A stretch of DNA of 64,000 bases from Candidatus Parcubacteria bacterium (GTDB taxonomy: Bacteria > Patescibacteriota > Patescibacteriia > UBA1558 > GWA2-36-10): assembly GCA_018664825.1 (NCBI GenBank), contig JABJNO010000025.1:3022-67021 (forward strand), read 5' to 3'. A program made the position numbers and the translations under genes. A model generated the notes under the pieces. The model was not told the origin of the DNA. It ran no database searches and worked only from the letters and a program-made list of their open reading frames with translations. Below are positions 8,294-38,731 of the stretch, piece after piece; positions within the stretch are counted from its first letter, which is position 1; each line of letters begins with the position of its first letter.

Positions 8294-8326
8294 ACACCCC
8301 AAGCAAAATCGAGGGGTGTTTTTTTA
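8294..8326. terminator. bidirectional rho-independent terminator between convergent genes
   Basis: ACACCCC / GGGGTGT hairpin flanked by an A-run (8286-8293) and a T-run (8320-8326). Confidence 0.6.
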
Positions 8327-9646: not shown

Positions 9647-9820
9647 TAATTTCTTGATAATTAAACTTATATACTTATCTTAATTTTTATCTATTTTTGT
9701 AATATAAATAATAACATATCATCATCAAAAATAACAGTCAAGGGACAAAATGAGCCCGATTTTTGTATTTGATTTTTTAGCTAACAAATGATAAAATTCT
9801 ACTATAATTTCATTATTTTT

Positions 9821-16535: not shown

Positions 16536-16614
16536 AAAAAGTTGGAGTTACTAAAAAGTCCTTTGGAAATTTGAGAAATTTATGTTATAATAAACATAAT
16601 TCAAAAGTTAATTA

Positions 16615-17403
16615 ATGGCAAAGAAAAATTTTAAAATTCAGGACTATCATAACTCTGAAGATGATCCAAAAGAATCAGCTGATTTTTTGCAACGAGCAAA
16701 TTTGGTAAAACAAAGTGATAGTCACAACCACAAGGTTATTTGGCCTTTTTTAATTTTAAGTATTTTTTTGGTTGCCTTTGGTTTTAGATTTATGTATGGC
16801 AATATCACTGATTCAGTTTCTTATGATGTGCCAGAGTGGGTAGAAGAAGAATTTGCACAAGAAACCGATGCGGAATTAATTGCTAAAATGCAAAAAGATG
16901 ACACAGACGAAGATGGTCTGAGTGATTATCAGGAGCTATATCAATATCATACCAGTATGTTTTTGGCGGATACAGATAGTGATGGCTATACAGATTATGA
17001 AGAGGTCACTTCTGGCAATGACCCGGCATGTCCAAGTGGACAAAGTTGTAATTTGCTCAAATTGATTACTCCTAAGTCAAAAATTAGTGAAGTGATTGAG
17101 GGTGTGGTTGATAATGATGATTTATCTATTGAAGATGCTGCCTTGGCAGAGTTCAAGAAATTTTTGTTGGACAATGGCATGACCCAAGAAGAGCTAGATA
17201 CCTTAACTGATCAAGAACTATTGGTAATCTTGGTAGAAGTGGGTAATCCAGAGGGTGTACCGATGGATATTTTGAGCAGTGAAACAACTCCTGAACAAGT
17301 CAGGAATTTTTTACTTAGTCAGCCAGATGCTGATGAAGAAGAGATAAATAGTCTCACAGACGAAGAATTAGCAGAGATCAAGGAAATTTTATTAACTCCA
17401 TAA
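16615..17403 (+). CDS. small membrane-anchored acidic protein with TSP3-like Ca-binding module (first gene of giant-protein operon)
   Basis: TM at aa ~43-60. DTDEDGLSDYQELYQYHTSMFLADTDSDGYTDYEEVTSGNDPACPSG. 27-nt gap to the next gene. Confidence 0.5.
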   Translation: MAKKNFKIQDYHNSEDDPKESADFLQRANLVKQSDSHNHKVIWPFLILSIFLVAFGFRFMYGNITDSVSYDVPEWVEEEFAQETDAELIAKMQKDDTDEDGLSDYQELYQYHTSMFLADTDSDGYTDYEEVTSGNDPACPSGQSCNLLKLITPKSKISEVIEGVVDNDDLSIEDAALAEFKKFLLDNGMTQEELDTLTDQELLVILVEVGNPEGVPMDILSSETTPEQVRNFLLSQPDADEEEINSLTDEELAEIKEILLTP

Positions 17404-17430
17404 TTTTTAAAATAAAACTAACATAAAAGC

Positions 17431-20400
17431 ATGAAAAGCTACAAAAAAATTCTCTTATTAATTATAGCTATTTTACTAGCTGTTACCCTCATTTTCCCAA
17501 GATTGACCAGAAGTCAATTTGCTACCGTCGATCAACCTTCAACGTTGGGAAACATTTGGAACAAAGTAGAAACGGCTTATGACAAAATTCAGGGTATAGT
17601 TGGGGCTGAACTAGCAAACCGTACTTTTGAAATGTTTTTCAATAGTCTAGCTTATGATGTGGCCACCGAGCTAGCCGAAGGTGGAGCGGGCGGCAAACCT
17701 CAGTTTCGGACAAAGACCATAGGTGAGTATATGGGTAACGCTGGCGGAGCAGCTGTCGGTGAGTTTATTGGTACTCTAAGTGAACAAGCTTTTGAAGATT
17801 TGCGTGTAAATCTCTGTAGTCCAAATGCACTTTCAGTAAAACTTACCTTGTCACTTTCATTGATAGACGAAGAAGCTCCTCCGAAACCGGCTTGTGATTG
17901 GCGTAGGATTCAAAGAGATTGGGGTGATTTTGCTGATAACTTATCTGCTGATTTGATAAAATTCCAGCTTGACCCAAAGAGGGGGGCTACTAGTACTAGG
18001 GCATTTTTCCAGAGTTTTACTATGGAGCAAAGTGATTATGGTGCTTATGCTATATTATTTCAAAAAAAAGAAGAGAAAAAAGAAGAAGCTATAGACGCCA
18101 GTAAGCTTAGTGCCGAAGAGTGTCAGGGGTATCTTGATAAAGCAACTCCAATTACAGATGAGGTAATTACACATTGTTCAGTCACCCAGAGCATGAGTAC
18201 TATGCAATGGTTTATGTCTTGGTCTGCTCAATCTCAAAAACAATGGGAGAAAAAAAATGCAGCTACTAGCAAGAAGTTGGGTACCATCCTAAAAGATGCT
18301 GCTGGTAAATTTTATAGTACTTTTACTTCAAAATTGATGAACAACTGGATCAAAAAAGGAATGTGGTCCTTGTATGATTTATTTGATGGCAATGGTGGTG
18401 GAAAATACAGAAAGGGTTTGATAGAAGCTTTGCGTGGTGATTCTAATATTCGTCAGCCTCGTAATGCTGATATTTTCAAGGAGTTCAAAAAAATAGAGAT
18501 AGTAAAATTGGACGATTATAGTTTTATGGATGATTTCTCTATTTGTCCACCAGAAAAAGATCTAAGAAAACCAGACAACTGCGTGATTGGTACAGATTTT
18601 GTCCAAGCTATTAATTCCAAAAAAACACTGAACGAAGCAATTGCAGAGGGTCTAATAGATCCAAAAACACCCTTGATTAGTCCAGAGGATTTGAATAAAA
18701 ACACTAGCGATAATTGTTATAAAGATAGTTTGTGCTATAAAGATTTGATTAAACTAAGGAAAACCAATGTCATACCAATTGGTTGGGAGATAGCAGCTCA
18801 AAGAAGTTCAGTAGCTTCTCCGGTAAGTTTGGCAGAGGCTATAGAGTGTTTTGAGGATGCTCCAAACTCAAATTGTATTCATGACACAACAGCGGTTTAT
18901 GATATAAATGGAGTTCCGCATAATCCTTTTTATCATTTAGTGGATGGTGATTGGGTGCTCAAAGCTCCAAAATCAAGTTGTGAGGCTTTGGTTTATGCAC
19001 CAGTCTTGGAATCATCACAAAGTACCAACCGTCAACAGTATTGTGCTGATATGACGGTCTGTCTACGTGAAGATGAAAATGGAAATTGTCTTGATGGACA
19101 ATATGGATATTGTACTAAATCAGAGAATATTTGGCGTTTCCGTGGGGATATGTGTGATGATGGTGATATATACAATGGTTGCCTAACTTTTGAAAGTAAT
19201 TATGTAGATGATCCGGGCTCATTTATAGAGAGTAGTTTGGAATATTGTAGTGCTGATCAAGCTGGGTGTAAGCGTTATTCCCAGGAAGTAACAAATAGCG
19301 GAGAATGGTCACTGGGAGTCATATATGTAGATCCAAATGATTTATATTTAAATAGAAGAGAGGAGTCTTGCAACGAAGAGTTTGCAGGTTGTTCTGAATA
19401 TATAGTTTTGGCTCCAAATAGAGGGGTCAATCTTGTGGCAAATGCTGGTTTTAATAATATGGATGGTGATTCGGATGTACCCTTTCCAGATGGTAGGCCA
19501 GATGGTTGGATTGATTTGGCTACTGGCGAAGATAGTGATGGTGTAGAGTATGATGGTGATAGAATAGCCAATGGATATCCGTGGGGAGGCTCGCCTCATG
19601 CGGGTACAGAAAGTCTTTATCAAACAATACCTCTTGTAGAAAATACTACTTATAGGATTTCAGCTTCTGCTGGTAGATATAATAACGCGGTAGCTTCATC
19701 AGGAAGGATATCGATATTATTGTGTGATGTTACGGGTAACTGTGCCAATAATAGTTTGGCAAAGCCTTTGGCAGATGGCGGAGATTGTACTATACCAAAT
19801 CCAGGAGACAACAACCCTAATCTAACTATTTTCCCACCTGCTAGCGGGGAAATGGAGAGGGCAAGTTGTTCTTTTACTACCAATAGTGCAGAAATCGGAG
19901 AAGCACAGTTGTATGTTGTGTCAAACGGTTCAAATGCTAGTTGGTTTGATAATATTAAAGTAGAAGTTGTTGGTGGTCCTGAGATGGCAGCTAGCTCTTA
20001 TACAGAATACGGTGTTGGTGGGGTAGTATATATGAGCGGTAGCACTTTTATGTGTGAACGAGAAGAAGTGGGTTGTCAAGGCTATACTCCTGTTAACGGA
20101 GGCCCTATGGTACCTGGTACTATTTCTGAAGGAGATTTATGTCCTAATGAATGCGTGGGTTATTCTACTTTTGCTCAGCAACCAAATATATATGATATTA
20201 TGGAAGATCCAGCTTCAAATCCACCAGTAGAGTATTATAATTTTATTCCAGATACTGCCAATAGTTGTCCAGATTCAGAAATTGGCTGTGAAGAATTTAC
20301 AAATCTTGATGAAGTAGCTCAGGGCGGTGAAGGAAGAGAGTATTATAGTTTCTTGCGTCAATGTGTAGAGCAGGACTTGGCTGCTACATTTTTTACCTGG

Positions 20401-23400
20401 GAAGGCAACGATACAACTGGTTACCAGATTATTACTAGAGATTTATTGGGTAGTGAAGTAGTTACTTTTCTTCCAGATGGAGTAGCTCCATGTACAAATA
20501 TTGCCCCAGGAGGCAATGTTTGCCAGGACACTATCGGTGTTCCTGCGATTTGTGGTGACGAAACTCCAGCTGATCCAACCGATGATCCAGATGTTGATCC
20601 AAATTGTCGTGAATATTTTGATACTACTGGACGTTCATATTTCCGTTTTCAAGACAGAGTTATTTATGCAGACAATGATTGTCATGACTATAAGAGGACT
20701 TCTACTGGGCAAATATACAAAGCTATCCCTAGTAGGAGCATTGCTTGTTCAGCCGAAAACGATGGCTGTCGCTCATACTATGGTAACGCAGCTAATAATT
20801 TGAGAGAAATTTTCTCAGATAATTTTGAGGTGGATATGTACTATTGGGAGGATGCCGCAGGACCAGCGCTTGCGTTGTCTCAGGAGTCACTGAATGACGG
20901 AGGGCAATCTTTGAGAACTCAAACAGGTGGAGTGATATTCAAAGATTTACTTGCTGCTGGTGCTCAGGTATACAATGAAAAAGAATATGAACTTTCTTTC
21001 TGGATGAGGGCAAACGCACCTTTGTCTGATATGCAGGCTAGCCTTCTTGCGAATGATGGAGCCAATCCTTTGGTTATTGTTCCTATGGTAGATCCAGCGG
21101 ATGCCAACTTTAGAAATATTGGAGGAGGCACTTGGAATTATTATACTACCTCTGTATATGTAGATACCCTTAATATTGATTTAAACAATCTTGTAGATTT
21201 ACAGTTGAGACTTTCCTTTAATGGGGGGATAGTGGATGATATTTTCTTGGACAATGTTACGATGAGAGAAGTGTATACTCATCTAGCGGTTGTAAAAGAT
21301 TCTTGGGACACTCCAGTGTCTTGTGATACCCCATACGAAGGTTATCATCTAGGTTGTCAATCTTATATAGATACAAATGGAGCACCTTATAACTTAAAAT
21401 CGTTTTCACACCTATGTAGAGAAGAGGCGATAGGTTGTGCTCCGGCGATTGATACTCAAAACTCAACTTATCCTTTTAGTGAGGAATTCAACACGGGTGA
21501 TTTATCACGTATTACCGTACCAGCAGACAGCTTGACTTTCTTGGTGCCAAATTCTGAAAATTATTGTCCGGAAAATTATAAGGGTTGTAGTGCCCTGGGC
21601 TTGCCTGATGATTCTCTCAATCCATCTTCTTTTGAGACTGTCTACAAAATGAATGACCCAGACGCATACGGAGCTACTTTGTGTGAATTTGAGGGTCTGG
21701 ACTGCGAAGAGTTTAATTCAGCCAAAGGTACGTATTATTTCAAGATTATTTCAGAGCAAGGCAGCTGTAGTTATTTACAAAATGTTTTGATAAATGACGG
21801 CTCAAATGATCAATTGATAAATGGTTGGTTCAATAATTTTTCTATTGCAAATGATACAAATATTGGTTGTTCTGATGATGGAGATGGCACAATAGAACAA
21901 TCAGATTATGACTTTATCTGGGACCATTGTACTGGTCATCCAGATGTCCACACAGAACAAGAATGTACGGTTGGTGGATGGTTTTGGGAAAATAGCCAAA
22001 CAGCCGCTTCTTGTCCACCAGACAGAGATATGTGTACAGCTTTTAGAGATCCACAAGATCCAGTTGGTTGTGATCCAAACATCCAAGATAGAAATATAGA
22101 AGGGTACTGTAGTGATTTTGCGCATACTGATGAAAGTGCTTGTCGTTCAAATGGTGAGACCTGGACTCCTGCTTGTGATGAATATTATTATTATAAAAAC
22201 GATAAAATAGACGAGACTTCTTGCAACGGTCAAGTCGATAGAAATAGTGGCTGTATATTATTGGCAGATGCCAATAATTGGAATGGCGAGCATTCAGAAG
22301 TAGCTTTGTATTATGATAGTAATCAAAGTTATGATCTAAATGTATCTAGAAATCAGCCATACAGTCCGACTACTTGTAATCCTGATATTGATCCAACGTG
22401 TACTTTGGATGCAAATCTTTTGGTCAGAGCCTCAAAGGACAGGCAATGCGCCGAATGGCTAACTTGTAAATCGTCTACCGCAGTGTTCAATAAACAAACA
22501 AATGATTATGATTTGATTTGTGATGGCCTTGATTCTTGTGTTGAATTTGACGATGACGACACTAGCCTTACTAGTTGTAAAAAATGGGCAGATTATAATG
22601 AGACCAATACAGAGGCTTTGACGGCAGAGGTATACCAAACTCGAACTACTGGTAGGTACAACCATCTGGATTGGAGTGATTTTGAATATACTGGATATGC
22701 TGTACCGGATATGCTACCACCTAGTGAATTGGTTACTTACAATTTTGGTGACGAGGATAATCCAGAACCACGTTTGACTTATAGTGTTTGGGATAGCGTG
22801 GCTATCAATACAAGATTTTATGATGCTTGTGTGATCGCCTCTGATCCTGCTCAGCCACTAAATGACGCTGTTTGTACAGCTGAAATATCTGGGGAGAATT
22901 TTTATGGAGATTGTGAAGATGGTATTTGCTGGGTAAACCCAATGGCTCAAAACACTGATATAGATCAATTTCAAGTAGAAACTAGAGGTTACGCCACACC
23001 AAGCGCTCCTTTTCCAGCAGCTATTTCTCCTGGATTGGACAAATTACAGGCTTACAGTAACGCCAATGAGTGTGACGCAGATGAAAATGGTTGTGAGGCA
23101 GCTTATGTCAAAGTGACCTATGGTGACGCTTTGGGTAGCGCTACTGTTTTCCATTATCCGAAAGGATATTCGCCTATTCCTGGTAGTATTTGTACAATGG
23201 GGCGCACTAATGCTGGAATTATATGTACTGAGAATAGTCAGTGTGATTCTGCCTCTGGTAGATTTGATGGTCAATGTGCTCAAAAGACAAAAGAAGAAAC
23301 ATTTTTCAATTGGCAGGGAGTTTGTATGGAAAAAGATAAATCAGAAACTCTAGTCAAGGATAACGAAGACAGTAATAGCTGTAATATATGGTATCCAACT

Positions 23401-26253
23401 GATAGTATAGATGGTATAAGTAGCTTATTCAACAACTTTCGTGAAGCTGGTTATCATGCTGAAGACGGTAATGATGCTTTATTCTGTGCTGTAGCTGAGC
23501 CGTTTGAATTTACTGAAGATACTTATTTTTGTGGTCATACACAAAGTACTGGAGGTCTTACTGTGTGTACGGTTTTGATAAAAGTACCAGCTGGAGCTAT
23601 GGTGAGTTTGTCAGGTATTCAAAATTATGGTGATGAGATAGTAAATGGTTACTTAAGAAACTATGCCGACCATGCCTTTGACGAGCCGATAGATTATAGT
23701 AGTGAATATTCAGGCGCAAGCTTTCCAAATGGCTTTGGTGTAGATTGGGTTGAGAAAAATGGTGTTGGTCCAGATGTATACTATAATCCAAATCAAACAA
23801 CTTCGTGTACGCACTATAATAATTATGATAGTTTGCCAGTGAGCTTTGGTGATGGATATGACTCATTTTTCCGAGATATGGATTTTACTGATGATGATAT
23901 ACCACCGATGAATGATATTCCAGTGATTCCATTTGGCAATGTAGCTGAAGTATTCAATACCGGAGTAACTAGTAATGCCTCTGGTCCAATAGATATATAT
24001 TATTATGATGAAGAAGTTTCTGATAATGGTAATTTTTCTTATACTGCCGGTATTTTGGTACCTGGTGCTGAGCGTTATCATTACGGAATAAGTACTATAT
24101 ATGATGGTAATGTAGTGGCCGATGTTGGCAAGAGCTGTGAAGACAAATGTAGAAATGATTGGGGTGTTTTCTATTGTCCTGACGGCTGGCACGAATCTCT
24201 ACTAAGGAGAAAATACACAGGTTCAAAATGTAAAACATGGGGACCTCGTGAACATTGGAGTTTCCGTTATTGTAATCCAGGCGACCATAACTATTATGTA
24301 AAGGCAGAATATCCACCAACTATGGCACCACCAGCTCAGTGTTCTGAATATGATTGTGGCGCAGCCAATAAAGGACTTAGTTGTTTACATACACCTGGTA
24401 GTACATATAATGACATGTTAACCGCAGTTATTGGCTCTTCCTATAGTTGGATGCTTCCGGTTGATATTGATCCGAATCCAATGGTCACTACTTATAGAGA
24501 TAGATTACCTATACCTAATATGGCATTGGCTGGATTACCTCAATATTGTTATAATAATCCAAACTGTCTATATATATATTGTGTAGAAAGAGCTAGTGTA
24601 TCAAATGATTATTGTAGTGAATTTGGTGAAATAAGAGAAAATACAAATGCAGATGGTGTGGTCACTAGTATTAGTATTATCGAATGTCTGGACAATCTTT
24701 ATGAAACAGACCCTGAAAATGGCGTTCAAGCATTCAAGGTAAAAGATGACACTGATAACGTAGATCCAAACCTTGGCTGGCCACTGGCTATTGACTTAGG
24801 TCTTTTGGATCAAGCCTATAATACAGATTTTGCTTGTTATAATGTATCAAATTCAACCAATCCAATATACGATGGTAGTATTAATAACGAGCTGACATGT
24901 AACAACACATTAAATAGATCTTGGCTAAACAGGGGCTCAGTACAGCCTGCCTTTATGGGTTGCCTGGAGTCTGATGTGGGCGTAGACTGCTCTACTAATT
25001 TTGCAATGGCCCCTGCCAATAGATGCTATTGGTGGAGAAGAGGAAATTGGATAGCTCCATACTATTGTAGTTCTGTCTATGCTACCACGAGAGATGGTGC
25101 AGATTGTACGGGTCTGGAATGTTTCCAACAATGTAGGATAGTGACTGAGCTTGATTCAGAGGGTGATAGGTCTTATGTGCGTACTGATATTTGGTGGAGA
25201 AACGAAGAAAGTACTACTCGTTTAGTGACAGACAACTGGACTTCCTATTATTATCACAACAATACTATTGGTTATGGAGTAGCCAATGGTAATGTAGATT
25301 GGGACAACATCAATGATAATGCAATTCCAGATGAGTTTGGTGATCCGGGTTCATTTGATACTTTTGGTGCTGCTAAGAATAGTATAGGAGATCAAAAATT
25401 ATTTGCTCGAGCACCACTTGATAGTACAAATAATTTTTCAGAGTACTTGACTGCTCACTTCTTTAGTTTTGTATCTGGTACTCCAGAGCCAGTTGTTGAT
25501 GCTTATGCTTTGGCCGAAGATCAGATGGAGTATCTATTTTTCAGAACCTTTAATTTTGAATGGAGATGGGACTTACTCACTAGTCAATATACATATATTG
25601 AGCCAGATACTGCGTACTCTGTAAATTTACGTACTGTAGAGATGCCAAACGGAAACAACAACAATCCATTTGCCGGGGCAGAGTTTGACCCGGTTGTGTA
25701 CAAGAGTTGTGAAAACAAGCTATGTCCAATCACAGATTTGGCAGGAGAGATCCAAAGCTATGAGCACGGTATCACGGTCAATAACTCAAATGTCGGTAGA
25801 ATAAATGGACACGAGTCATTGTTTGTGTCTACCAAGTTTTTCTATTATGCTCACCCGGATCATATGCCTATCGTAGATGTGGGAGTGGTTTGGGGTGATC
25901 AGGATGTCAATCTTGTTTCATCAAATCCTGGTAAATATAAAAATAGTTTGGAAACCTGTGATCCTAATTGGATGGCAAGTCCACCAACAGGCTTTGTCCT
26001 TGGATTTGGTGGTACCGTGGGTGCTTGTCAGGTAGGCTATAAAGTATTTTACAATGATTATGCATATGATGCAGATCCACATGATCCTACAGTAGGACAT
26101 CCTTGTAATGGCGCTACTTATGATATAGCTGCTGGGCCAACTCCAGCTATCAGTGATGCTTCTTGTTTCCGCCCAGGTATTAGAGTAGAGGATAGATGGG
26201 GTCGTGAAACTACAGCTTATTATGATGATTGGATAGTTATCCATAGAAATTAA
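17431..26253 (+). CDS. giant (2940 aa) cysteine-rich extracellular/surface protein
   Basis: Uninterrupted 8.8-kb ORF. N-terminal signal/TM (ILLLIIAILLAVTLIFP). Very high Cys, Asn, Asp and Gly content typical of giant surface proteins of CPR-type genomes. Confidence 0.8.
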   Translation: MKSYKKILLLIIAILLAVTLIFPRLTRSQFATVDQPSTLGNIWNKVETAYDKIQGIVGAELANRTFEMFFNSLAYDVATELAEGGAGGKPQFRTKTIGEYMGNAGGAAVGEFIGTLSEQAFEDLRVNLCSPNALSVKLTLSLSLIDEEAPPKPACDWRRIQRDWGDFADNLSADLIKFQLDPKRGATSTRAFFQSFTMEQSDYGAYAILFQKKEEKKEEAIDASKLSAEECQGYLDKATPITDEVITHCSVTQSMSTMQWFMSWSAQSQKQWEKKNAATSKKLGTILKDAAGKFYSTFTSKLMNNWIKKGMWSLYDLFDGNGGGKYRKGLIEALRGDSNIRQPRNADIFKEFKKIEIVKLDDYSFMDDFSICPPEKDLRKPDNCVIGTDFVQAINSKKTLNEAIAEGLIDPKTPLISPEDLNKNTSDNCYKDSLCYKDLIKLRKTNVIPIGWEIAAQRSSVASPVSLAEAIECFEDAPNSNCIHDTTAVYDINGVPHNPFYHLVDGDWVLKAPKSSCEALVYAPVLESSQSTNRQQYCADMTVCLREDENGNCLDGQYGYCTKSENIWRFRGDMCDDGDIYNGCLTFESNYVDDPGSFIESSLEYCSADQAGCKRYSQEVTNSGEWSLGVIYVDPNDLYLNRREESCNEEFAGCSEYIVLAPNRGVNLVANAGFNNMDGDSDVPFPDGRPDGWIDLATGEDSDGVEYDGDRIANGYPWGGSPHAGTESLYQTIPLVENTTYRISASAGRYNNAVASSGRISILLCDVTGNCANNSLAKPLADGGDCTIPNPGDNNPNLTIFPPASGEMERASCSFTTNSAEIGEAQLYVVSNGSNASWFDNIKVEVVGGPEMAASSYTEYGVGGVVYMSGSTFMCEREEVGCQGYTPVNGGPMVPGTISEGDLCPNECVGYSTFAQQPNIYDIMEDPASNPPVEYYNFIPDTANSCPDSEIGCEEFTNLDEVAQGGEGREYYSFLRQCVEQDLAATFFTWEGNDTTGYQIITRDLLGSEVVTFLPDGVAPCTNIAPGGNVCQDTIGVPAICGDETPADPTDDPDVDPNCREYFDTTGRSYFRFQDRVIYADNDCHDYKRTSTGQIYKAIPSRSIACSAENDGCRSYYGNAANNLREIFSDNFEVDMYYWEDAAGPALALSQESLNDGGQSLRTQTGGVIFKDLLAAGAQVYNEKEYELSFWMRANAPLSDMQASLLANDGANPLVIVPMVDPADANFRNIGGGTWNYYTTSVYVDTLNIDLNNLVDLQLRLSFNGGIVDDIFLDNVTMREVYTHLAVVKDSWDTPVSCDTPYEGYHLGCQSYIDTNGAPYNLKSFSHLCREEAIGCAPAIDTQNSTYPFSEEFNTGDLSRITVPADSLTFLVPNSENYCPENYKGCSALGLPDDSLNPSSFETVYKMNDPDAYGATLCEFEGLDCEEFNSAKGTYYFKIISEQGSCSYLQNVLINDGSNDQLINGWFNNFSIANDTNIGCSDDGDGTIEQSDYDFIWDHCTGHPDVHTEQECTVGGWFWENSQTAASCPPDRDMCTAFRDPQDPVGCDPNIQDRNIEGYCSDFAHTDESACRSNGETWTPACDEYYYYKNDKIDETSCNGQVDRNSGCILLADANNWNGEHSEVALYYDSNQSYDLNVSRNQPYSPTTCNPDIDPTCTLDANLLVRASKDRQCAEWLTCKSSTAVFNKQTNDYDLICDGLDSCVEFDDDDTSLTSCKKWADYNETNTEALTAEVYQTRTTGRYNHLDWSDFEYTGYAVPDMLPPSELVTYNFGDEDNPEPRLTYSVWDSVAINTRFYDACVIASDPAQPLNDAVCTAEISGENFYGDCEDGICWVNPMAQNTDIDQFQVETRGYATPSAPFPAAISPGLDKLQAYSNANECDADENGCEAAYVKVTYGDALGSATVFHYPKGYSPIPGSICTMGRTNAGIICTENSQCDSASGRFDGQCAQKTKEETFFNWQGVCMEKDKSETLVKDNEDSNSCNIWYPTDSIDGISSLFNNFREAGYHAEDGNDALFCAVAEPFEFTEDTYFCGHTQSTGGLTVCTVLIKVPAGAMVSLSGIQNYGDEIVNGYLRNYADHAFDEPIDYSSEYSGASFPNGFGVDWVEKNGVGPDVYYNPNQTTSCTHYNNYDSLPVSFGDGYDSFFRDMDFTDDDIPPMNDIPVIPFGNVAEVFNTGVTSNASGPIDIYYYDEEVSDNGNFSYTAGILVPGAERYHYGISTIYDGNVVADVGKSCEDKCRNDWGVFYCPDGWHESLLRRKYTGSKCKTWGPREHWSFRYCNPGDHNYYVKAEYPPTMAPPAQCSEYDCGAANKGLSCLHTPGSTYNDMLTAVIGSSYSWMLPVDIDPNPMVTTYRDRLPIPNMALAGLPQYCYNNPNCLYIYCVERASVSNDYCSEFGEIRENTNADGVVTSISIIECLDNLYETDPENGVQAFKVKDDTDNVDPNLGWPLAIDLGLLDQAYNTDFACYNVSNSTNPIYDGSINNELTCNNTLNRSWLNRGSVQPAFMGCLESDVGVDCSTNFAMAPANRCYWWRRGNWIAPYYCSSVYATTRDGADCTGLECFQQCRIVTELDSEGDRSYVRTDIWWRNEESTTRLVTDNWTSYYYHNNTIGYGVANGNVDWDNINDNAIPDEFGDPGSFDTFGAAKNSIGDQKLFARAPLDSTNNFSEYLTAHFFSFVSGTPEPVVDAYALAEDQMEYLFFRTFNFEWRWDLLTSQYTYIEPDTAYSVNLRTVEMPNGNNNNPFAGAEFDPVVYKSCENKLCPITDLAGEIQSYEHGITVNNSNVGRINGHESLFVSTKFFYYAHPDHMPIVDVGVVWGDQDVNLVSSNPGKYKNSLETCDPNWMASPPTGFVLGFGGTVGACQVGYKVFYNDYAYDADPHDPTVGHPCNGATYDIAAGPTPAISDASCFRPGIRVEDRWGRETTAYYDDWIVIHRN

Positions 26254-26283
26254 TAGGGAGATAAAATTATAAATATATTAAAA

Positions 26284-28854
26284 ATGACAACACTCGAAAC
26301 TTATCCATTGGTTAAAAAACCATTCAAGAAAATTACAGCCAATAAATTTTGGATCGCCTCCATGGTTTTTGCTGTTGTATTATTGTTGCCCCAAGTTGTT
26401 TCGGCGGGTATGGGAGACAAAATAGCAGTGGGAATTGGACAAATAGTGTACTACATAGGAGTTGCTTTTCCAGCTTGGATTTTGATGATAGAGCTAAAGT
26501 TATTGCCAATGATTGGTCAATACAACGACTTTACCCGTGAAAATGGTGTAGTGGTAGGTTGGACTGCTTTACGAGATTTGGCCAATATGTTTTTTATACT
26601 TATTTTACTCATTATTTCCTTTGCTACTATTTTGCGTATTGATCGTTTTGGTTATCGTCAGTTGTTGTCAAAGTTGATTATTATGGCTGTACTGATCAAT
26701 TTTAGTATGACCATAACTGGTCTACTGATTGATTTTTCGCAGGTAATAATGCTTACTTTTATTGATGCCGTAAAAGACGTGACAGCTGGAAATATTATGG
26801 TATCCCTAGGTTTGGGAAGTATTACGTCTTTTGGTGAACAAACAGGTAGTGTCCAAGGGATAGATTTTTTAAAGGCAGTACTTTTGGGATCAGTCATGAT
26901 GGTGATTGCTGTGGTTGTAGTAGCCGCTTTTATGCTTGTATTGACTGCTAGGATTGTAAAATTATGGATTCTAATAGTAGTTTCTCCGATGGTATTTTTG
27001 GCTTATGCTTTTCCTCTTACAGAAAAATATTATAGTCAGTGGGTAGATGAGCTTACCAAGCAGTTGATTTCTGGTCCGACCTTGGCATTTTTCTTGTGGC
27101 TTTCTTTTACTATTGTAGGTAGTGGGAATGTATCTGACAATTTTACAAAATATGCTCCACCGGGTGACAATGGCTCAGAGATAAGTGCAGCAGCTAGTAC
27201 GCCAAATATTGTAAATTATGTGATTAGTATATCTATGTTGGTAGGCGCCTTGGGATTTGCAGCCCAACAAAATAGCGCCGCCGCTGCTTTGTCAAACAAA
27301 TTTAAATCTGGTTCAAAGAAGCTTGGTGGAATGGCAGCTAAGCGTGTTTGGCAAGGTGGAAGATCTGCAGGTGGTGCAGGTGGCGTCAAAGGCGCATTTG
27401 TTTCTGCAGGTGGTGTGGTTGCGGGTAAACTCAGGGGACTTGGTGTTGGTATGCAAGGTAAAGATAAAGATGGTAACGATAAAAAAGGTAAGGGCAATGC
27501 TGTTCTTAGGAAGGTTCTTGGTGGTGCGGGTCGTAAGGCCGAAAGGGCTGGCATAGAAGGCGAGGCACACTCGGCTGCCGCAGCTTCTACTCGAGACAAA
27601 GGAATGCAAGAGGCGATGAAGAATATGAATCCAGCTCAGCAAAAAAGATATCTTGAGTTAAAAGGTGGAGACAAGGAATCTGGTGCAGCAAAAGGAAGGT
27701 TTAGTGGAGGTGATTCTGCTAGACGTCTTATGATTCAGATGAACATGGATTCTGGACACTATGATACAGATGCTGGTGCTGAACAAGTGCAAGATGATTA
27801 CAAATTTTTAGAAGAGAGAGGTGGTATGGAGTCTCACGAAACAATGAAAAAAATGAAATCAAAGTACGCTGTTTTGGATGATTCTAGTGAGGCTGACATA
27901 GCCAAGGACATTGCTACTGGTAAAGTAGAATCAGTTGACTTTAGTGGATGGCAGATGCCCGATGGAAGTATAAATACTAACGCCAGGAAGAAAATGGATG
28001 CTTTGGTAGATGGTATGGATTCAAAAGATTTACAGGCTTTGTTTGATAGGATGAACAAGCGCCAGCAAGATGCTTTCAAGGATGTGATGGCGAATATGGA
28101 GGCTCAGGATATAGGCTTGACCAAGGGAGTCAATGCTGATGGATCTACCAAAGAAGATGATAAAACACACAAAGCTAGAATGTTTATGATGAATAATGAT
28201 GCCAAGGGTTCTACGGCTTTATTTGATAAAATTGCAGCCAAAATCGGAGCTACTGGCACAAGCTCAGCTGATAAACTTAAATTCGAAAAAACGCGTGATA
28301 GCTTGGCAACTGCTAGAAGTGGTACCAAGTTTGATACTTCAACTTTACTCAAAGCAGATGCCGGCTCTTCATACGTGACGTCGATGGCAGGTTTATTGAC
28401 CGCTGGTCAATTGGGTACCGTAGCTAGTGAAGGTACCAGGGAGCAGAGACAGGCAGTTGTTGACGAACATATTACGGGTGGAGGACAACATTTATCTACT
28501 ATTTTAGCCAACAAACCCTTGGGAGACCTTATCAATGAAACAACTATACAACAAAATTTTAAAAATCAAATAGATGCTGCGCCTGATCCAGCAGTAATGG
28601 CCACAAAGTTGGCCAAGGGTAATTTGAATTTTGCTCAACAGGTATATCCTGATCCAAAAGACTTGGCTAAATTTATCAATGATAATCTAAAAGTTGATGA
28701 GGCAGTAAAGATAGATACATCAGAACTAAAAAAAGCCTGGGTGCATCTAGATGTTGCTATGCAAACTGCCCTTGAAAAGAAGGGTGTTACTGGCCCTGGC
28801 GGCTCTAGTGGTTCTGGTGGTGGCGGAGCAAATACAGGTGGAGGTGGTATATAA
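26284..28854 (+). CDS. polytopic membrane protein (~8 TM) with Gly-rich linker and long hydrophilic C-terminal tail, with TrbL/VirB6-like topology (speculative)
   Basis: N-terminal 330 aa strongly hydrophobic. GGRSAGGAGGVKGAFVSAGGVVAG Gly-rich region. Hydrophilic 500-aa tail ending GGSSGSGGGGANTGGGGI. 30 nt downstream of the giant protein. Confidence 0.45.
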   Translation: MTTLETYPLVKKPFKKITANKFWIASMVFAVVLLLPQVVSAGMGDKIAVGIGQIVYYIGVAFPAWILMIELKLLPMIGQYNDFTRENGVVVGWTALRDLANMFFILILLIISFATILRIDRFGYRQLLSKLIIMAVLINFSMTITGLLIDFSQVIMLTFIDAVKDVTAGNIMVSLGLGSITSFGEQTGSVQGIDFLKAVLLGSVMMVIAVVVVAAFMLVLTARIVKLWILIVVSPMVFLAYAFPLTEKYYSQWVDELTKQLISGPTLAFFLWLSFTIVGSGNVSDNFTKYAPPGDNGSEISAAASTPNIVNYVISISMLVGALGFAAQQNSAAAALSNKFKSGSKKLGGMAAKRVWQGGRSAGGAGGVKGAFVSAGGVVAGKLRGLGVGMQGKDKDGNDKKGKGNAVLRKVLGGAGRKAERAGIEGEAHSAAAASTRDKGMQEAMKNMNPAQQKRYLELKGGDKESGAAKGRFSGGDSARRLMIQMNMDSGHYDTDAGAEQVQDDYKFLEERGGMESHETMKKMKSKYAVLDDSSEADIAKDIATGKVESVDFSGWQMPDGSINTNARKKMDALVDGMDSKDLQALFDRMNKRQQDAFKDVMANMEAQDIGLTKGVNADGSTKEDDKTHKARMFMMNNDAKGSTALFDKIAAKIGATGTSSADKLKFEKTRDSLATARSGTKFDTSTLLKADAGSSYVTSMAGLLTAGQLGTVASEGTREQRQAVVDEHITGGGQHLSTILANKPLGDLINETTIQQNFKNQIDAAPDPAVMATKLAKGNLNFAQQVYPDPKDLAKFINDNLKVDEAVKIDTSELKKAWVHLDVAMQTALEKKGVTGPGGSSGSGGGGANTGGGGI

Positions 28855-28891
28855 ACCCACGTGAATAATAAGTTTTATTTTTGATACATAA

Positions 28892-30151
28892 ATGGAGGAC
28901 GAACTACAAAAATTACCAGTCGAGGTAAAGGAGGTTATTTTTAGTCAGGATTTTGTAAAAGCAAATAATGATATTGTTGATAAGTTTTCTTTCAATAGGG
29001 CTCAACAGGAGCTTATTTTAAGTTTGGAAGAATCTTTATTTTTAAAAAAGATCTCTCCCTTGGACTTGTCTTCTGAATTGGAGGATTTGGAGAGGGCGGA
29101 TTATTATGATTTACGAAAAGTAGGCTTAGAAATTGCTCTCAATATTTTGTGGCCATTACAAGAGTATCTCAAAACAGTGGATAGGCTTATTTTACGCTTG
29201 GGTGGTAAAGTGCCCAGATTGATTCGTCTCAAACGGACACCAGTCCAAAAAAAAGTATTTCCTGATCTCCACAAGGGCTATGTCAGGGAAATGATAAAAG
29301 AGTTTGATGATTTCAAAGATTTGAGGCTGACAGCAAAAAAAATTATAGATAAAAGTGGTAGGTTGGTAATTTCTAGTATTGATAACTGGATAAAAGATTA
29401 TATTCATTTTTTGGGAGCTGGTTATCACAACTCTTTACAACGGTCTCAGTACTTGGCCAAATCACCAAATGTCAAAGCTCTCAATTTGGCAGAAAAAGAG
29501 CTTATGCGTCATTTTATAACTTCTTATGATGACAACGTTGAGATTACCCTAGAAAACAAAAGTGGAGTATTGGTTGTAATAGAGGAGGAAGAAACTTCAA
29601 AAGAACGGGGTGTAAAAAAACCTACGGAAATAAAAATAGACAAAGTTGTTGCTAATTTGCAAAAACAATTGACTGCCCTAGAAGCTGACATTATGCCCAC
29701 TGATTTTATACTTTCAGAAGCAGAAAATGATATCAAAAAATTGGGAGATGTTTTGTGGAAGGCGGTTGGATTGCAAGATAAAAATAAAGTTCTAAGCTGT
29801 CTCAAGGTGATGGTTGAAAAAAAGTTTTTGGATAGTATGCTAGTTGAAAATAATAGGTTTAAAAATATTTTGAAAAGATTTGTAAATATCACCTATGGGA
29901 TTGAGGCCGAGAGAGGACTGTCTCAAAACAGTGACAAGTTGATTGCTAGACGTTTATTTTTGCAAATGTTATTGGCTGATAAATTGCGCCTAAAAGAACG
30001 TGAGGCAACATTGCTATCTTTTTATCTGACAAATTTGTTGCCAGGTTCGGGGCAAGTTGTATATTTGGATCAAAATGACGGTGAGCTCAAGTGGAGGGAG
30101 ATACACTCATCCGCTGGGCATCTGGCCTGGGTTGATCAAGTGACAGGATAA
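28892..30151 (+). CDS. hypothetical cytoplasmic protein (last gene of giant-protein operon)
   Basis: Long ORF with no recognisable motifs. Confidence 0.4.
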   Translation: MEDELQKLPVEVKEVIFSQDFVKANNDIVDKFSFNRAQQELILSLEESLFLKKISPLDLSSELEDLERADYYDLRKVGLEIALNILWPLQEYLKTVDRLILRLGGKVPRLIRLKRTPVQKKVFPDLHKGYVREMIKEFDDFKDLRLTAKKIIDKSGRLVISSIDNWIKDYIHFLGAGYHNSLQRSQYLAKSPNVKALNLAEKELMRHFITSYDDNVEITLENKSGVLVVIEEEETSKERGVKKPTEIKIDKVVANLQKQLTALEADIMPTDFILSEAENDIKKLGDVLWKAVGLQDKNKVLSCLKVMVEKKFLDSMLVENNRFKNILKRFVNITYGIEAERGLSQNSDKLIARRLFLQMLLADKLRLKEREATLLSFYLTNLLPGSGQVVYLDQNDGELKWREIHSSAGHLAWVDQVTG

Positions 30152-30182
30152 AAAAATTCAAGCTGCTGGCTTGAATTTTTTG

Positions 30183-31349
30183 TTATTTTATTTTCCAAAT
30201 TGTTATTTCTCGGTGAACTTTTTGATTGGGTCGATGGTATATCAGAGGCTTACCTACTAGCTCGAAACCTAAGTTTTGGATTATTTGTTTGTCTAGGGTA
30301 TGGAGTTGTTTATCATGGATATCAAATATCGGGAAAATAAATACTATTTTTCCAGATTTCTTTAATATTTTTTTGAATTGTTCAAAAGCATCATTGTACA
30401 ATTCTTGTAGTTCGTTTCTTATTTTATCTAGATGAGCTACACTTTTTTGTCTTTGAATAAAGCGAGCATCACCCATGTATGGTTCACTGACAATCAAGTC
30501 AAAATATTCATTAGAAAAACTTCTACTAATACTTTTTATATTGATTTTATTTATTTTTGGTTTGATTTTGAGGTTGAAAGTTTTGATTAGCCAGTCAGTA
30601 TTGGCTATAGCATCATTTACTGCCTTGTCAGAAACATCTGTACCGTATATTTTTTCAAAGCCCAAAAGCATCGCCTCCTGCAAAACAGTTCCAGATCCAC
30701 AGAAAGGGTCGAGTATTGTCTTATTTCGCTCAGAACCAGCCAAATTTAGCATCATTTGAGCCAATTTTGGAGGTAGCATGCCCGATTTGTCGTCTCGATT
30801 GGGTCTTTTCATGTCTCGTAGACCATATTTGGCAAAATCTTGAACAGCCTCGGTAATCCCTAGGATCCACTGCTCATCTTTTTTTATCACAACGAGCTCT
30901 GAACCAATCAATTTATTTTTTGTGACAATCACAGATGATAGTTGTTCTTCTCGGCTACTGACCAAACGAATTTTATGTTTTGATTTTAATTCTCTTTTTA
31001 TATCCAGGGCAATAGACTGGATGATGCTATATTCTTTGTGACTACCATCATAAAGGCTAAAGCCAAAATTTGTCTTTTGCTCGTTGGATAGGGGGATATT
31101 TTTTATCCAAAAACTTGCCAAATCTTCGAGACTTTTTAGTTTATCCAAGAGCCTGGCAACTTTTATAGTACCGCCCAAATTCTTCATGATTTCTTTGGCT
31201 TTGGACTCACTTTCTATAATCAAAAAATTACTTCCTGTCTCTAAGATTTTATTTGGTGAAGAACCTAGCCAGTTGGTTGCTTCTTGGCGAGCCAAATCAG
31301 TAGATTGACCCAATATTAGTATATATTTGTTCACTTGTTTAGAAATCAA
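30183..31349 (-). CDS. putative THUMP-domain RNA N2-guanine/N6-adenine methyltransferase (Trm11/RlmL-like, UPF0020 family)
   Basis: MLPPKLAQMMLNLAG...ILDPFCGSGTVLQEAMLLG (motif I) and IVSEPYMGD (motif IV). Confidence 0.55.
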   Translation of the reverse strand: MISKQVNKYILILGQSTDLARQEATNWLGSSPNKILETGSNFLIIESESKAKEIMKNLGGTIKVARLLDKLKSLEDLASFWIKNIPLSNEQKTNFGFSLYDGSHKEYSIIQSIALDIKRELKSKHKIRLVSSREEQLSSVIVTKNKLIGSELVVIKKDEQWILGITEAVQDFAKYGLRDMKRPNRDDKSGMLPPKLAQMMLNLAGSERNKTILDPFCGSGTVLQEAMLLGFEKIYGTDVSDKAVNDAIANTDWLIKTFNLKIKPKINKINIKSISRSFSNEYFDLIVSEPYMGDARFIQRQKSVAHLDKIRNELQELYNDAFEQFKKILKKSGKIVFIFPIFDIHDKQLHTLDKQIIQNLGFELVGKPLIYHRPNQKVHREITIWKIK

Positions 31350-31568
31350 TAGTTATTTTGTTCCGCACCCAGTAAGAGTGGCGGGATTCATAGGTACATA
31401 ATAGGTTAAATAGTGGATTTAGGCAACTTGCACAACCTTGACTTAAGGTTTTGGATATGTTAGAGTATTCAAAGTCTAATAGATCTTTATTTTAATTAAC
31501 CAAGTCTGTTTTGCTTTATGCAAAGCAACCCTTGATTCATCAAGAAATCAAGGTAATTAGGTAGATTT

Positions 31569-32060
31569 ATGAATTACGAACTATCTTTTATTATCAGTTC
31601 TGCAATTCCAGAAACAGAACATGATAAAGTACAACAAGAGATTTTGAGCTACATAGAAAAAGCTGGAGCCAAAATTTCTAAACAGCCACAAGTGATTGGC
31701 CGTCGAAAATTAGCTTATCCTATCAAAAAGCAAAAACATGGGTTTTATGTGTTTTTGGAATTTGAAACAGAGGATAAAACAGGTTTTGTAGAAATGGAAA
31801 CCAAGATTAAACATAATCCTGGTATTTTACGACATTTGCTTATCAAAAAAGATGTAAAAGTGTCAGCTGTGGCACCAGAAGTCAAACAAGCAAAGCCTAC
31901 CAAGCCAGCTTTTGAAGCCAAGCCAAAAACAGAGGAGAAGTCCGAGGAGAAGCCTCAAGAATCAGAAGCAAAGCCTGTTACTGAGGAAATCAAGCTTGAC
32001 CTAGGAGATATCGACAAAAGATTGGATGAGATACTGGGTTCTGATCCAAAAGTAGACTAA
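31569..32060 (+). CDS. rpsF: 30S ribosomal protein S6 (with Lys/Glu-rich C-terminal extension)
   Basis: MNYELSFIISSAIPE...GRRKLAYPIKKQKHGFYVFLEFE. Conserved rpsF-ssb-rpsR order. Confidence 0.85.
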   Translation: MNYELSFIISSAIPETEHDKVQQEILSYIEKAGAKISKQPQVIGRRKLAYPIKKQKHGFYVFLEFETEDKTGFVEMETKIKHNPGILRHLLIKKDVKVSAVAPEVKQAKPTKPAFEAKPKTEEKSEEKPQESEAKPVTEEIKLDLGDIDKRLDEILGSDPKVD

Positions 32061-32084
32061 GTAGATTATTAAAGAGATAATCAT

Positions 32085-32555
32085 ATGAATTTAAACAAAG
32101 CAATGGTCATAGGAAATGTAGTTCGCGATCCTGAAATGCGCTCTACAAACGGTGGCCAAAATGTTACTTCTTTTTCAATTGCCACCAATATGGTTTGGAA
32201 AGATCAAACTACTGGTGAGAAAAAAGAAAAAGCTGAATTTCACAATATTGTAGCCTGGAGACGTTTGGCTGAAATTAGTAGCCAATATCTAAAGAAGGGC
32301 AGTAAAGTTTATATTGAAGGTCGTTTACAAACCAGGTCTTGGGATGATCCAAATGGTGTCAAAAGATATCGTACAGAGATTATCACCGAAAACATGATCA
32401 TGCTTGATAGAGCAGGAGCCAATGTTGACGGAGGAGACGGTGGCTATACAGCTCAGCCAGCTCCAAAACAAGATGCGCCTGTACAACAACAAGCACAAAA
32501 AACTGATAACAATGTAAGCGAAGAAGAAATCAGTATTGAAGACATACCATTTTAA
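32085..32555 (+). CDS. ssb: single-stranded DNA-binding protein
   Basis: OB-fold motifs (MVIGNVVRDPEMR...FHNIVAWRRLAEI...YIEGRLQTRSWDD) and acidic C-terminal tip EEISIEDIPF. Confidence 0.9.
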   Translation: MNLNKAMVIGNVVRDPEMRSTNGGQNVTSFSIATNMVWKDQTTGEKKEKAEFHNIVAWRRLAEISSQYLKKGSKVYIEGRLQTRSWDDPNGVKRYRTEIITENMIMLDRAGANVDGGDGGYTAQPAPKQDAPVQQQAQKTDNNVSEEEISIEDIPF

Positions 32556-32575
32556 TAAATTTTTAAGTTTTAATT

Positions 32576-32794
32576 ATGCATAAAAAATTAATTAACAAAT
32601 ATTGCTATTTTTGTGTTAACAATATTTCACATATTGATTATAAAAATTGGCAACAACTACAAAAGTTTACCTCTTCTTATAACAAGATTGTTCCAAAAAG
32701 AAGAAGTGGAGCTTGTTCAAAACACCAAAGAAAGTTGACTACCGGTATCAAGAGAGCTCGTTTTATGGCTCTATTACCATTTGCTGCAAAATAA
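32576..32794 (+). CDS. rpsR: 30S ribosomal protein S18
   Basis: CYFC...IDYKN...LQKFTSSYNKIVPKRRSGACSKHQRKLTTGIKRARFMALLPF. Confidence 0.9.
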   Translation: MHKKLINKYCYFCVNNISHIDYKNWQQLQKFTSSYNKIVPKRRSGACSKHQRKLTTGIKRARFMALLPFAAK

Positions 32795-33356
32795 TATGTT
32801 ATCATTGAGTGATTTAAAATTAGGTAAGGTGATTAGTGTAAACAATGATCCGTATCAAATAGTTTTTACCCAACATATAAAAGTAGCCCGAGGTGGAGCA
32901 GTTGTTAAAACCAAATTAAAAAATTTGGCTGGTGGTTCTACTTTGGAAAAGACGTTTAATGGTTCGGATAGTATAGAGGATGCTGACATCGATCATCGTA
33001 AAGCAAATTTTTTGTACACGACTGATGATGATTATTTTTTCATGGACAACGAAGATTTTGAACAATTTCAATTTGCCAGTGACGTTTTGGGTGATATGAC
33101 AAAGTATTTGGTTGAAGGACAAGAAGTTGATGTTTTGATTTTCAATGACAAGCCAGTTTCTGTGGCATTGCCAACCAAGATTACTCTAAATGTAAAATCA
33201 GCCCCTGAAGGAGTCAAGGGAAATAGTGCCGGAGCAGTCACCAAGGTAATAGTTTTGGAAACGGATGTAGAAATAAGAACTCCACTTTTTATAAAGGCCG
33301 GAGACAAGGTGGTTGTCAATACTGAAACAGGAGAATACGTCGAAAGAACACAATAA
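32781..33356 (+). CDS. efp: elongation factor P
   Basis: LKLGKVISVNNDPYQIVFTQHIKVARGGAVVKTKLKNL... KOW/OB domains, ~190 aa. Overlaps the rpsR stop. Confidence 0.85.
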   Translation: MLQNNMLSLSDLKLGKVISVNNDPYQIVFTQHIKVARGGAVVKTKLKNLAGGSTLEKTFNGSDSIEDADIDHRKANFLYTTDDDYFFMDNEDFEQFQFASDVLGDMTKYLVEGQEVDVLIFNDKPVSVALPTKITLNVKSAPEGVKGNSAGAVTKVIVLETDVEIRTPLFIKAGDKVVVNTETGEYVERTQ

Positions 33357-35019: not shown

Positions 35020-35023
35020 ATTT

Positions 35024-35485: not shown

Positions 35486-35495
35486 TTGATAATAT

Positions 35496-36176: not shown

Positions 36177-36177
36177 A

Positions 36178-38109: not shown

Positions 38110-38134
38110 TTTTAATAAAAAATAACATAAATAT

Positions 38135-38707: not shown

Positions 38708-38731
38708 TTTATAATTATTAAGAATAAGAAT

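Follow-up and report, generated by a model that had tools for sequence, protein, structure and literature searches.

A giant cysteine-rich protein shares an operon with a VirB6 homolog at a Patescibacteria type IV secretion locus and is a candidate host-contact element

A 64-kb window of Candidatus Parcubacteria DNA (assembly GCA_018664825.1, contig JABJNO010000025.1; counts of window features refer to this stretch) carries an operon of four genes, the second of which encodes a cysteine-rich protein of 2940 amino acids (aa), here called the giant protein. We found that this operon very probably belongs to a type IV secretion system (T4SS) locus and that the 856-aa protein encoded by its third gene is the VirB6 of that system. 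We propose that the operon represents the 5′ surface or host-contact module of a chromosomal T4SS of the Patescibacteria type (monoderm, MPF-FATA-like), with the giant protein as the contact element, and we give this reading a probability of about 0.55. For the giant protein taken by itself, assignment as a T4SS adhesin or contact element falls somewhat short of an even chance. The operon and its boundaries comprise the following features.

16563-16591, + strand: promoter-like site, TTGGAA-17-TGnTATAAT (sigma-70-like, with a TG-extended -10 element), 24 nucleotides (nt) 5′ of the first start codon; a consensus match only
16615-17403, + strand: open reading frame (ORF) for the 262-aa TSP3 membrane protein
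17431-26253, + strand: ORF for the 2940-aa giant protein
26284-28854, + strand: ORF for the 856-aa VirB6/TrbL-like protein
28892-30151, + strand: ORF for the 419-aa cytoplasmic protein
30151-30181, no strand assigned: bidirectional terminator-like hairpin with a 14-bp stem, a flanking A-run, and a flanking T-run, between the operon and a convergent methyltransferase gene

The gene order, the coordinates, and the short intergenic gaps (27, 30, and 37 nt) given in a preliminary description of this DNA all held when the ORFs were re-read. The 131-nt spacer behind ksgA contains a hairpin followed by the sigma-70-like site, and the region is AT-rich (67 sites in the promoter consensus scan versus 50.6 expected). 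Given the promoter-like site upstream and the terminator hairpin downstream, the four genes look like a single transcription unit and are probably co-transcribed. Rfam and tRNA scans gave no match inside or beside the operon. HON36_06020 and HON36_06025 have the same sequences as the 856-aa and 419-aa proteins, respectively. Order and orientation of the gene set are kept across dozens of genomes at 25 to 50% protein identity, which places the four-gene arrangement far beyond chance.

The assignment of the 856-aa protein carries the argument. This protein has two parts.

26284-27288, + strand (aa 1-335): VirB6/TrbL-like polytopic domain, recognized by Pfam TrbL matches in relatives, AlphaFold, and Foldseek
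27289-28854, + strand: Gly/Ala/Lys-rich linker and 516-aa hydrophilic tail, free of Cys, recognized by composition and charge

About seven hydrophobic helices lie within aa 17-329. The AlphaFold model of aa 1-350 (117-sequence alignment; predicted local distance difference test score [pLDDT], 81.6; predicted template modeling score [pTM], 0.76) is all-helical, with helices at aa 21-39, 44-78, 87-116, 124-174, 192-241, 244-279, and 306-329. When this model was compared with PDB structures using Foldseek, the seven best matches were all TrwI/VirB6 of the R388 system (8rtd_L, 8rt9_F, 7o3v_F/G/J/H, and 8rtd_H; probability, 0.82 to 1.00; expectation value [E], 8e-3 to 0.24; template modeling [TM] score on target a modest 0.40 to 0.49). 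The Pfam family TrbL/VirB6 (PF04610) matches 16 of the 42 aligned members of the 856-aa family (best E, 3.9e-7), and the ortholog in the related locus L005 carries a weak precomputed PF04610 match. What the preliminary description had recognized as a TrbL/VirB6-like topology therefore reflects homology as well. A sequence search of the PDB with the protein or its family profile was discarded as uninformative (nothing relevant was found, and the profile matched through the low-complexity tail to TolA and SMC).

More than 236 homologs of the 856-aa protein were found, with all named sources being Patescibacteria (candidate phyla radiation, CPR) or plain "bacterium." Across them, only the N-terminal 330 to 350 residues are conserved, and the tail aligns in close relatives only. 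TcpH of the Clostridium perfringens plasmid pCW3 is an example of an extended VirB6. Such proteins, described as having 700 to 900 residues with unstructured regions, occur in monoderm MPF-FA systems and in Rickettsiales (PMC12857230). The first 70 residues of the tail of the 856-aa protein have a net charge of +10, which, under the positive-inside rule, suggests that the tail may be cytoplasmic; in R388, however, the larger part of VirB6 is outside the membrane (PMC12857230). Like extended VirB6 proteins, the 856-aa protein joins an N-terminal polytopic domain of ~330 residues to a long low-complexity hydrophilic region; unlike them, its similarity to TrbL is visible via family members only, and its tail is rich in Gly, Ala, and Lys. 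No match to the VirB6-like domain was found in a tblastn search of 72,556 plasmids. No other window ORF matches the 856-aa family profile. As the only VirB6/TrbL homolog in the window, the 856-aa protein is likely a stalk or translocon subunit of the T4SS that is encoded downstream.

That T4SS cluster (33481-42440), which the preliminary description did not include, begins 3.3 kb past the operon and contains the following genes.

33481-35019, + strand: 512-aa soluble protein preceding PrgI (pre-PrgI protein), whose C-terminal domain is kept in pre-PrgI proteins elsewhere
35024-35485, + strand: PrgI/VirB3-like protein with two hydrophobic segments (Pfam PrgI, E 1.8e-10)
35496-36176, + strand: TraC-like protein of 226 aa, with no Pfam match in the window protein itself; orthologs with 72 to 76% identity carry precomputed PF26593
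36178-38109, + strand: VirB4-like ATPase (P-loop_TraG, E 5e-28; AAA_10, E 7e-11; DUF87), 82 to 83% identical in loci L001 and L002
38135-41378, + strand: three membrane or secreted proteins (190, 365, and 407 aa), of which the 190-aa protein is syntenic in L001 to L003
41385-42440, + strand: VirB2/T4SS_pilin-like protein of 351 aa (T4SS_pilin, E 8.9e-5, 22.9 bits, under the cut-off of 26.6)

The prgI gene lies 6.2 kb downstream of the gene for the 856-aa protein, with virB4 behind it. The intervening DNA (30183-33356) holds the methyltransferase gene on the - strand, rpsF, ssb, and efp, and in related loci also rpsR. The T4SSs of Patescibacteria are related to monoderm MPF-FATA conjugation systems, are usually without a relaxase and a coupling protein, and are often located near ksgA, with KsgA often near virB4 (Quinonero-Coronel et al. 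2025, PMC12102498). The window shares with the published systems VirB4, PrgI/VirB3, VirB6, a putative VirB2-like pilin, and a chromosomal site near ksgA, and Pfam scans of the larger window ORFs found no relaxase or type IV coupling protein family. The pilin-like protein at the end of the cluster is unusually long, with a pilin-like N terminus and a Cys-rich extension (18 Cys, 5.1%). Right behind this last T4SS gene lies an IS200-like Y1 transposase gene (42620-43189, + strand).

To evaluate how constant this arrangement is, we examined 86 loci with a homolog of the giant protein. In 76 of them, the gene immediately before the giant encodes a homolog of the small TSP3 protein; 7 of the other 10 loci are cut by contig ends. 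Among the 55 informative loci (those in which the available sequence continues for 1.5 kb or more past the giant), 42 encode a VirB6-like protein downstream on the same strand, at a distance of <300 nt in 26 loci, within 2 kb in 8, and of 3.7 to 8.2 kb in 8. The co-conservation expected of the operon was thus borne out, with order and orientation kept, and the 856-aa protein did not turn out to be a member of an unrelated transporter family.

Three arrangements of the wider locus were found. In the arrangement of the window, the housekeeping block separates the gene for the 419-aa protein from the gene for the pre-PrgI protein. In a second (L023 to L025, L046, and L051), the methyltransferase/rpsF/ssb/efp block is inverted as a unit and both halves of the T4SS gene set are in place. 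In a third (L064, L073, and L079), there is no block, and the genes for the giant, the VirB6-like protein, a protein of the 419-aa or 512-aa type, PrgI, the TraC-like protein, and VirB4 are contiguous. Both T4SS halves stay in place even where the intervening block is inverted or missing, which suggests that they are parts of one system.

In Uhrbacteria-type loci, a conserved 570- to 820-aa M23 peptidase protein is encoded directly before the VirB6-like protein (L028, 23625-25697; L065, 21003-22904; also L030, L049, L052, L057, and L076), and it could be the analogue of VirB1, the cell-wall hydrolase of T4SSs. The genes between the giant and virB6 in these loci were considered as paralogs of the giant and proved instead to include genes for a seryl-tRNA synthetase and M23-peptidase proteins, among others. 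A LysM-M23 peptidase is encoded in the window as well (8324-9646, - strand). Locus L048 encodes, 2 kb downstream of its giant homolog, a 1917-aa protein with SpvB, TcdB-midN, RHS-repeat, and FG-GAP domains that resembles polymorphic toxins of the toxin-complex type (20897-26647). Many contigs with the same synteny (L010, L011, L015, L023, and others) are clearly from Patescibacteria and are titled "uncultured Gammaproteobacteria bacterium" (TPA_asm), which looks like systematic mislabelling.

The 419-aa protein was described previously as cytoplasmic, and, consistent with this, it has no hydrophobic segment. It carries an invariant VDRLILRLGGKVP motif. The protein has no Pfam, NCBIfam, or PDB match, its family profile found nothing relevant in the PDB, and a Pfam scan of ten remote relatives found no named domain. 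The family profile matches 1912 representative clusters, most of them through the N-half alone or the C-half alone. In L004, L064, and L079, a 620- to 720-aa protein is encoded between virB6 and prgI; its N terminus matches the N-half of the 419-aa family, and its C terminus matches the C-terminal domain of the 512-aa pre-PrgI protein. Because its N-half resembles this intervening protein, we place the 419-aa protein among the cytoplasmic members of the T4SS gene set. The 419-aa and 512-aa proteins were also compared as possible paralogs, and this was rejected (hhalign probability, 0.1; BLASTP E, 0.67).

The giant protein, in turn, has the attributes of a surface protein. Its recognizable parts are as follows.

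17431-17523, + strand (aa 1-31): signal-peptide-like N terminus, with a hydrophobic segment at aa 7-25 and the family consensus PxPAxA after it
19423-19980, + strand (~aa 665-850): first beta jelly-roll resembling a carbohydrate-binding module (CBM); AlphaFold beta-sandwich at aa 729-848, pLDDT 60 to 75
20803-21285, + strand (~aa 1125-1285): second such module, CBM_4_9-like; Pfam CBM_4_9 (PF02018) at aa 1127-1209
23578-26250, + strand (aa 2050-2940): variable C-terminal third, mostly with an identity of 0.14 to 0.28, which returns to 0.32 to 0.35 in the last 150 residues

The N-terminal hydrophobic segment had been read in the preliminary description as a signal anchor. The segment is present, but a cleavable signal peptide is more likely than an anchor because the family consensus PxPAxA resembles a signal-peptidase site; on this basis cleavage of the giant is predicted, and the cleavage site of the window protein itself is degenerate. 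The same description spoke of hundreds of Cys, Asn, and Asp residues, which applies to Asp (256) and Asn (219) but not to Cys (110, or 3.7%). Cys is nonetheless by far the best-conserved residue class (mean conservation of 0.79 among 16 divergent members). In these 16 members, 57 of the 81 core Cys residues are at least 90% conserved, compared with 5 of 29 in the C-terminal third. There are about a dozen copies of a short motif, C-x6-GC-x2-[YF]. The conserved Cys residues and the recurring motif imply structural disulfides and an extracytoplasmic protein, and, together with the signal-like N terminus and the CBM-like folds, they point to an extracytoplasmic, disulfide-stabilized giant.

Members of the giant family fall into 45 clusters of 2.5 to 3.8 k aa in a protein search and share ~40% identity across ~2900 aa; when one genome per GTDB species was scanned, at least 501 species genomes encoded a relative. 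The 80 giant loci retrieved include Komeilibacteria, Nomurabacteria, Uhrbacteria, Kerfeldbacteria, and Falkowbacteria as named lineages, and all matches seen are restricted to CPR, in agreement with the earlier suggestion that such proteins are a CPR feature. All members share a conserved core (aa 1-2025; identity to the query, 0.3 to 0.55). No [LIV]PX[TSA]G motif occurs anywhere in the protein, and no C-terminal hydrophobic segment is predicted. A hydrophobic segment at aa 2042-2060 (score, 1.69) was considered as a membrane span and was taken instead as a buried strand or helix. A comparison of the giant with PDB sequences gave no relevant match.

The CBM-like modules were recognized by two routes. 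Foldseek comparison of an AlphaFold model of aa 1-1200 (25 sequences; pLDDT, 56.7; pTM, 0.31; only beta-sandwich matches were used) returned as top PDB matches CBM16 (2zey, 2zex), CBM22 (4xup), CBM4 (1gui), and the sugar-binding domain of Fbs1, with E of 7e-6 to 3e-4 for the CBM matches and a TM score on target of 0.69 to 0.71 for the best. Foldseek reports no query coordinates, and the model, together with the N667/N671/F674 ... WFDNIKVE motifs, places this match most plausibly in the domain at aa ~665-850. In the second module, Pfam CBM_4_9 matches the window protein under its cut-off (E 1.5e-4, 22.6 bits versus 25.9) and matches 11 of 16 relatives at E 0.05 or better (best E, 6e-13). Both regions carry an N-terminal NxxxNxxF motif and a C-terminal [FW][FL]DN[IV] motif. 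The giant modules thus share with CBM families 4, 9, 16, and 22 the beta jelly-roll and these motifs, whereas they differ from the known modules in sitting in a non-enzymatic Cys-rich scaffold and in scoring below the Pfam cut-off. In Pfam and NCBIfam scans of the window protein and relatives, CBM_4_9 was the only match, and no adhesin domain was found.

The first gene of the operon encodes what sequence predicts to be a single-pass protein, with one hydrophobic segment (aa 41-59), a cytoplasmic N terminus, and an acidic helical C terminus. It contains two TSP3 repeats (Pfam PF18884, TSP3_bac; E 1.2e-6, 28.6 bits versus a cut-off of 25) at aa 96-107 and 119-130, with putative Ca-binding motifs of the DxDxDGxxDxxE type. 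An NCBIfam scan of the operon proteins gave trivial TSP3-type matches only. The preliminary description noted that this module recurs in two secreted proteins of the window, and a motif search agrees: the pair DTDxDGLxDxxE, followed 22 to 23 residues on by DTDxDGYxDxEE, is found in three window proteins, with the two motifs starting at the following positions.

16615-17403, + strand: 262-aa protein, aa 96 and 119
3448-5070: secreted 540-aa protein, aa 396 and 418
5107-8277, + strand: secreted 1056-aa protein, aa 818 and 840

The sharing of this module suggests a common unit for Ca-dependent docking or wall attachment. The 1056-aa protein also has a C-terminal DsbA/thioredoxin domain (Thioredoxin_4, E 2e-20), which makes it a candidate surface oxidoreductase for the folding of Cys-rich surface proteins.

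Taken as a host-contact module, the operon might function as follows. The giant would be exported by Sec and then oxidatively folded outside the cell; a surface protein with a DsbA domain is encoded 9 kb upstream. Because the giant lacks both an LPXTG motif and a C-terminal hydrophobic segment, its retention at the surface would be non-covalent, through the TSP3 membrane protein, the VirB6 assembly, or both. The CBM modules and the variable C-terminal third would bind glycans of the host envelope, and the giant would supply the target-contact function that VirB5 or the pilus tip provides in Gram-negative systems and PrgB-type adhesins provide in Gram-positive ones. A farther-reaching version, which we put forward as speculative and on the whole unlikely, is that in much of the Patescibacteria, namely lineages of the ABY1 and Paceibacteria type with at least 501 species genomes, a disulfide-knotted, lectin-bearing giant of 2500 to 3800 residues is an integral extracellular part of the T4SS. 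Its helical N terminus would dock on VirB6 in place of VirB5 or the pilus tip and the TSP3 protein would serve as a Ca-dependent tether, while the CBMs and the C-terminal third would read host-wall glycans, set host range, and couple recognition to channel opening.

Several observations weigh against a contact role of the giant in the T4SS or against parts of it. Its physical or functional coupling with the T4SS is deduced from gene context, and the whole 40-kb neighborhood is syntenic in these streamlined genomes, including leuS, tsaC, ksgA, and rpsF-ssb-efp. Conserved gene order says less here than it would in most bacteria, because housekeeping genes without any relation to the T4SS are just as syntenic. 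Among the 55 informative loci, 13 showed no VirB6-like protein in the available flank of 1.5 to 10 kb, and in the 8 loci with a distance of 3.7 to 8.2 kb a seryl-tRNA synthetase gene (in several) and an M23 peptidase gene (in most) lie in between. In L004, a VirB6-like homolog is encoded directly before a 620-aa protein, PrgI, the TraC-like protein, and VirB4 with no giant nearby, so that a T4SS does not need a giant in every lineage. The window 856-aa protein itself has no Pfam TrbL match at E 0.1 or 0.01, and the TM scores of its N-domain are modest. For the giant, the overall quality of the model is poor; the helical N-terminal region of 360 residues, the candidate for docking on VirB6, is of low confidence and matches nothing, and ~1400 further core residues outside both CBM-like modules match nothing known. 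Sugar binding by these modules is a prediction from sequence and model.

These points lend substance to the best-surviving alternative, namely that the giant and its TSP3 partner form a general envelope or attachment structure (a coat or a free-standing adhesin) independent of the T4SS, with the adjacency to virB6 being frozen synteny. We consider this possible but rather unlikely. The equal synteny of the housekeeping genes, the 13 loci without a detected VirB6-like protein, and the 8 with a wide gap all fit it, as does the finding that the most constant part of the locus is the trio of ksgA, the small protein, and the giant (76 of 86 loci). Large Cys-rich extracellular proteins of CPR bacteria have also been reported without a link to a secretion system (PMC4736985). 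However, in the window and its closer relatives only 30 nt separate the giant from virB6 within one promoter-to-terminator unit. Moreover, the block from the small protein to the 419-aa protein is intact where the housekeeping block is inverted or absent, and in L064, L073, and L079 it runs on without interruption into the genes for PrgI and VirB4.

We regard it as improbable that the giant acts as a secreted toxin or lytic factor, for example a pore-former or an enzyme that degrades polysaccharides, with its CBMs directing it to the host wall; such a protein would be similar to the giant proteins reportedly proposed for predatory Omnitrophota. Modules of the CBM4/9/16/22 type, which the giant resembles in fold, usually accompany glycoside hydrolases (CAZy). 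Foldseek also lists phage tailspike and baseplate proteins and pore components of binary toxins, via the same beta-sandwich, and some loci have M23 peptidase genes in the interval from the giant to virB6. However, no catalytic domain was found in the window giant by Pfam or NCBIfam or in 15 relatives by Pfam, a PDB sequence search gave no match, and ~1400 core residues outside the CBM-like modules resemble nothing known. The toxin and phage matches span ~130 to 250 aligned columns, consistent with a shared jelly-roll.

The proposal of the preliminary description, in which the 856-aa protein serves the giant alone as its export channel or anchor in a self-contained two-partner system, draws on the adjacency of the two genes (30 nt) and their co-conservation within 300 nt in 26 loci, but it has very little left in its favor, because the giant has a Sec-type signal of its own and the 856-aa family is VirB6/TrbL, with a homolog beside PrgI, TraC-like, and VirB4 genes in the giant-free L004 and with the window protein being the sole VirB6 candidate for the T4SS encoded there. 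Anchoring of the giant by the 856-aa protein within the T4SS is possible and is included in the contact-module reading that we prefer.

How does the proposed module compare with known systems? The Patescibacteria T4SS, the VirB6 homologs near virB4, and, in general terms, large Cys-rich CPR proteins are already published. The published Patescibacteria T4SSs list no giant, whereas here, in at least several dozen loci, the giant and the TSP3 protein lead the virB6 operon. In R388, the VirB6 pentamer carries the extracytoplasmic VirB5, which mediates target contact. The TrwI/VirB6 and TrwJ/VirB5 stalk of R388 (7o3v, 8rt9, 8rtd) is the best structural match of the 856-aa N-domain, and VirB5 might be the functional analogue of the giant; in contrast to R388, there is no VirB5 homolog here, and the giant is ~13 times the size of VirB5 and without detectable similarity to it. 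Like the PrgB/Asc10 class (pCF10), the giant is a large surface protein that could bring cells into contact and whose gene accompanies a monoderm T4SS, but it has no LPXTG sorting signal and no Pfam adhesin domain. PrgB-type adhesins, unlike the giant, are not known to be Cys-rich. Because the giant differs from the PrgB class in these properties and has no similarity to VirB5, its equivalence with either would be a functional analogy only. For the Patescibacteria T4SS, it has been stated that "No adhesins, such as PrgB, were detected" (PMC12102498).

A related published description is that of large, very Cys-rich extracellular proteins in Peregrinibacteria, which have a signal peptide, average 1655 aa, vary among strains, and were proposed to have a role in attachment (Anantharaman et al. 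2016, PMC4736985). Those proteins were tied to no machine, whereas the giant family is conserved over its full length and occupies a fixed locus beside virB6. In the literature searched, we found no description of a conserved giant Cys-rich, CBM-bearing protein that leads a virB6 operon with a TSP3 partner and no published link between such a giant and a T4SS.

Three further features of the window lie outside the operon and the T4SS cluster.

9788-12682, + strand: leucyl-tRNA synthetase of 964 aa whose editing domain is followed by an inserted NUDIX hydrolase domain (PF00293, aa 399-520, E 1.2e-13); the syntenic enzymes of L005 and L007 have 801 to 804 aa and no NUDIX match
46019-46482, + strand: cluster of tRNA-Ser(TGA), tRNA-Arg(GCG), and tRNA-Ser(GCT), the sole Rfam/ARAGORN matches in the window
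57062-59260, + strand: 732-aa protein with ten YadA_head repeat stretches (E 9e-63), a domain typical of trimeric autotransporter adhesins of diderms but encoded here by a CPR genome

The T4SS is among the few machines conserved across Patescibacteria, and reviews call its role completely unknown (PMC10633639, PMC11665869, PMC12857230). It is essential for epibiotic growth of Southlakia epibionticum, the sole species tested (Wang et al. 2023, PMC10633639). If the link between the giant and virB6 is frozen synteny only, annotation is still gained, as a "hypothetical protein" of 856 aa is identified as VirB6 in this genome. If virB6 is co-transcribed with a conserved, glycan-binding giant in hundreds of uncultured species, the latter would be a concrete candidate for a host-contact element of Patescibacteria. 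The variable C-terminal third and the CBM modules would then offer a host-range marker for metagenomes, and three "hypothetical" CPR families, namely the giant, its TSP3 partner, and the 419-aa superfamily (~1900 representative clusters), would gain a function by context.

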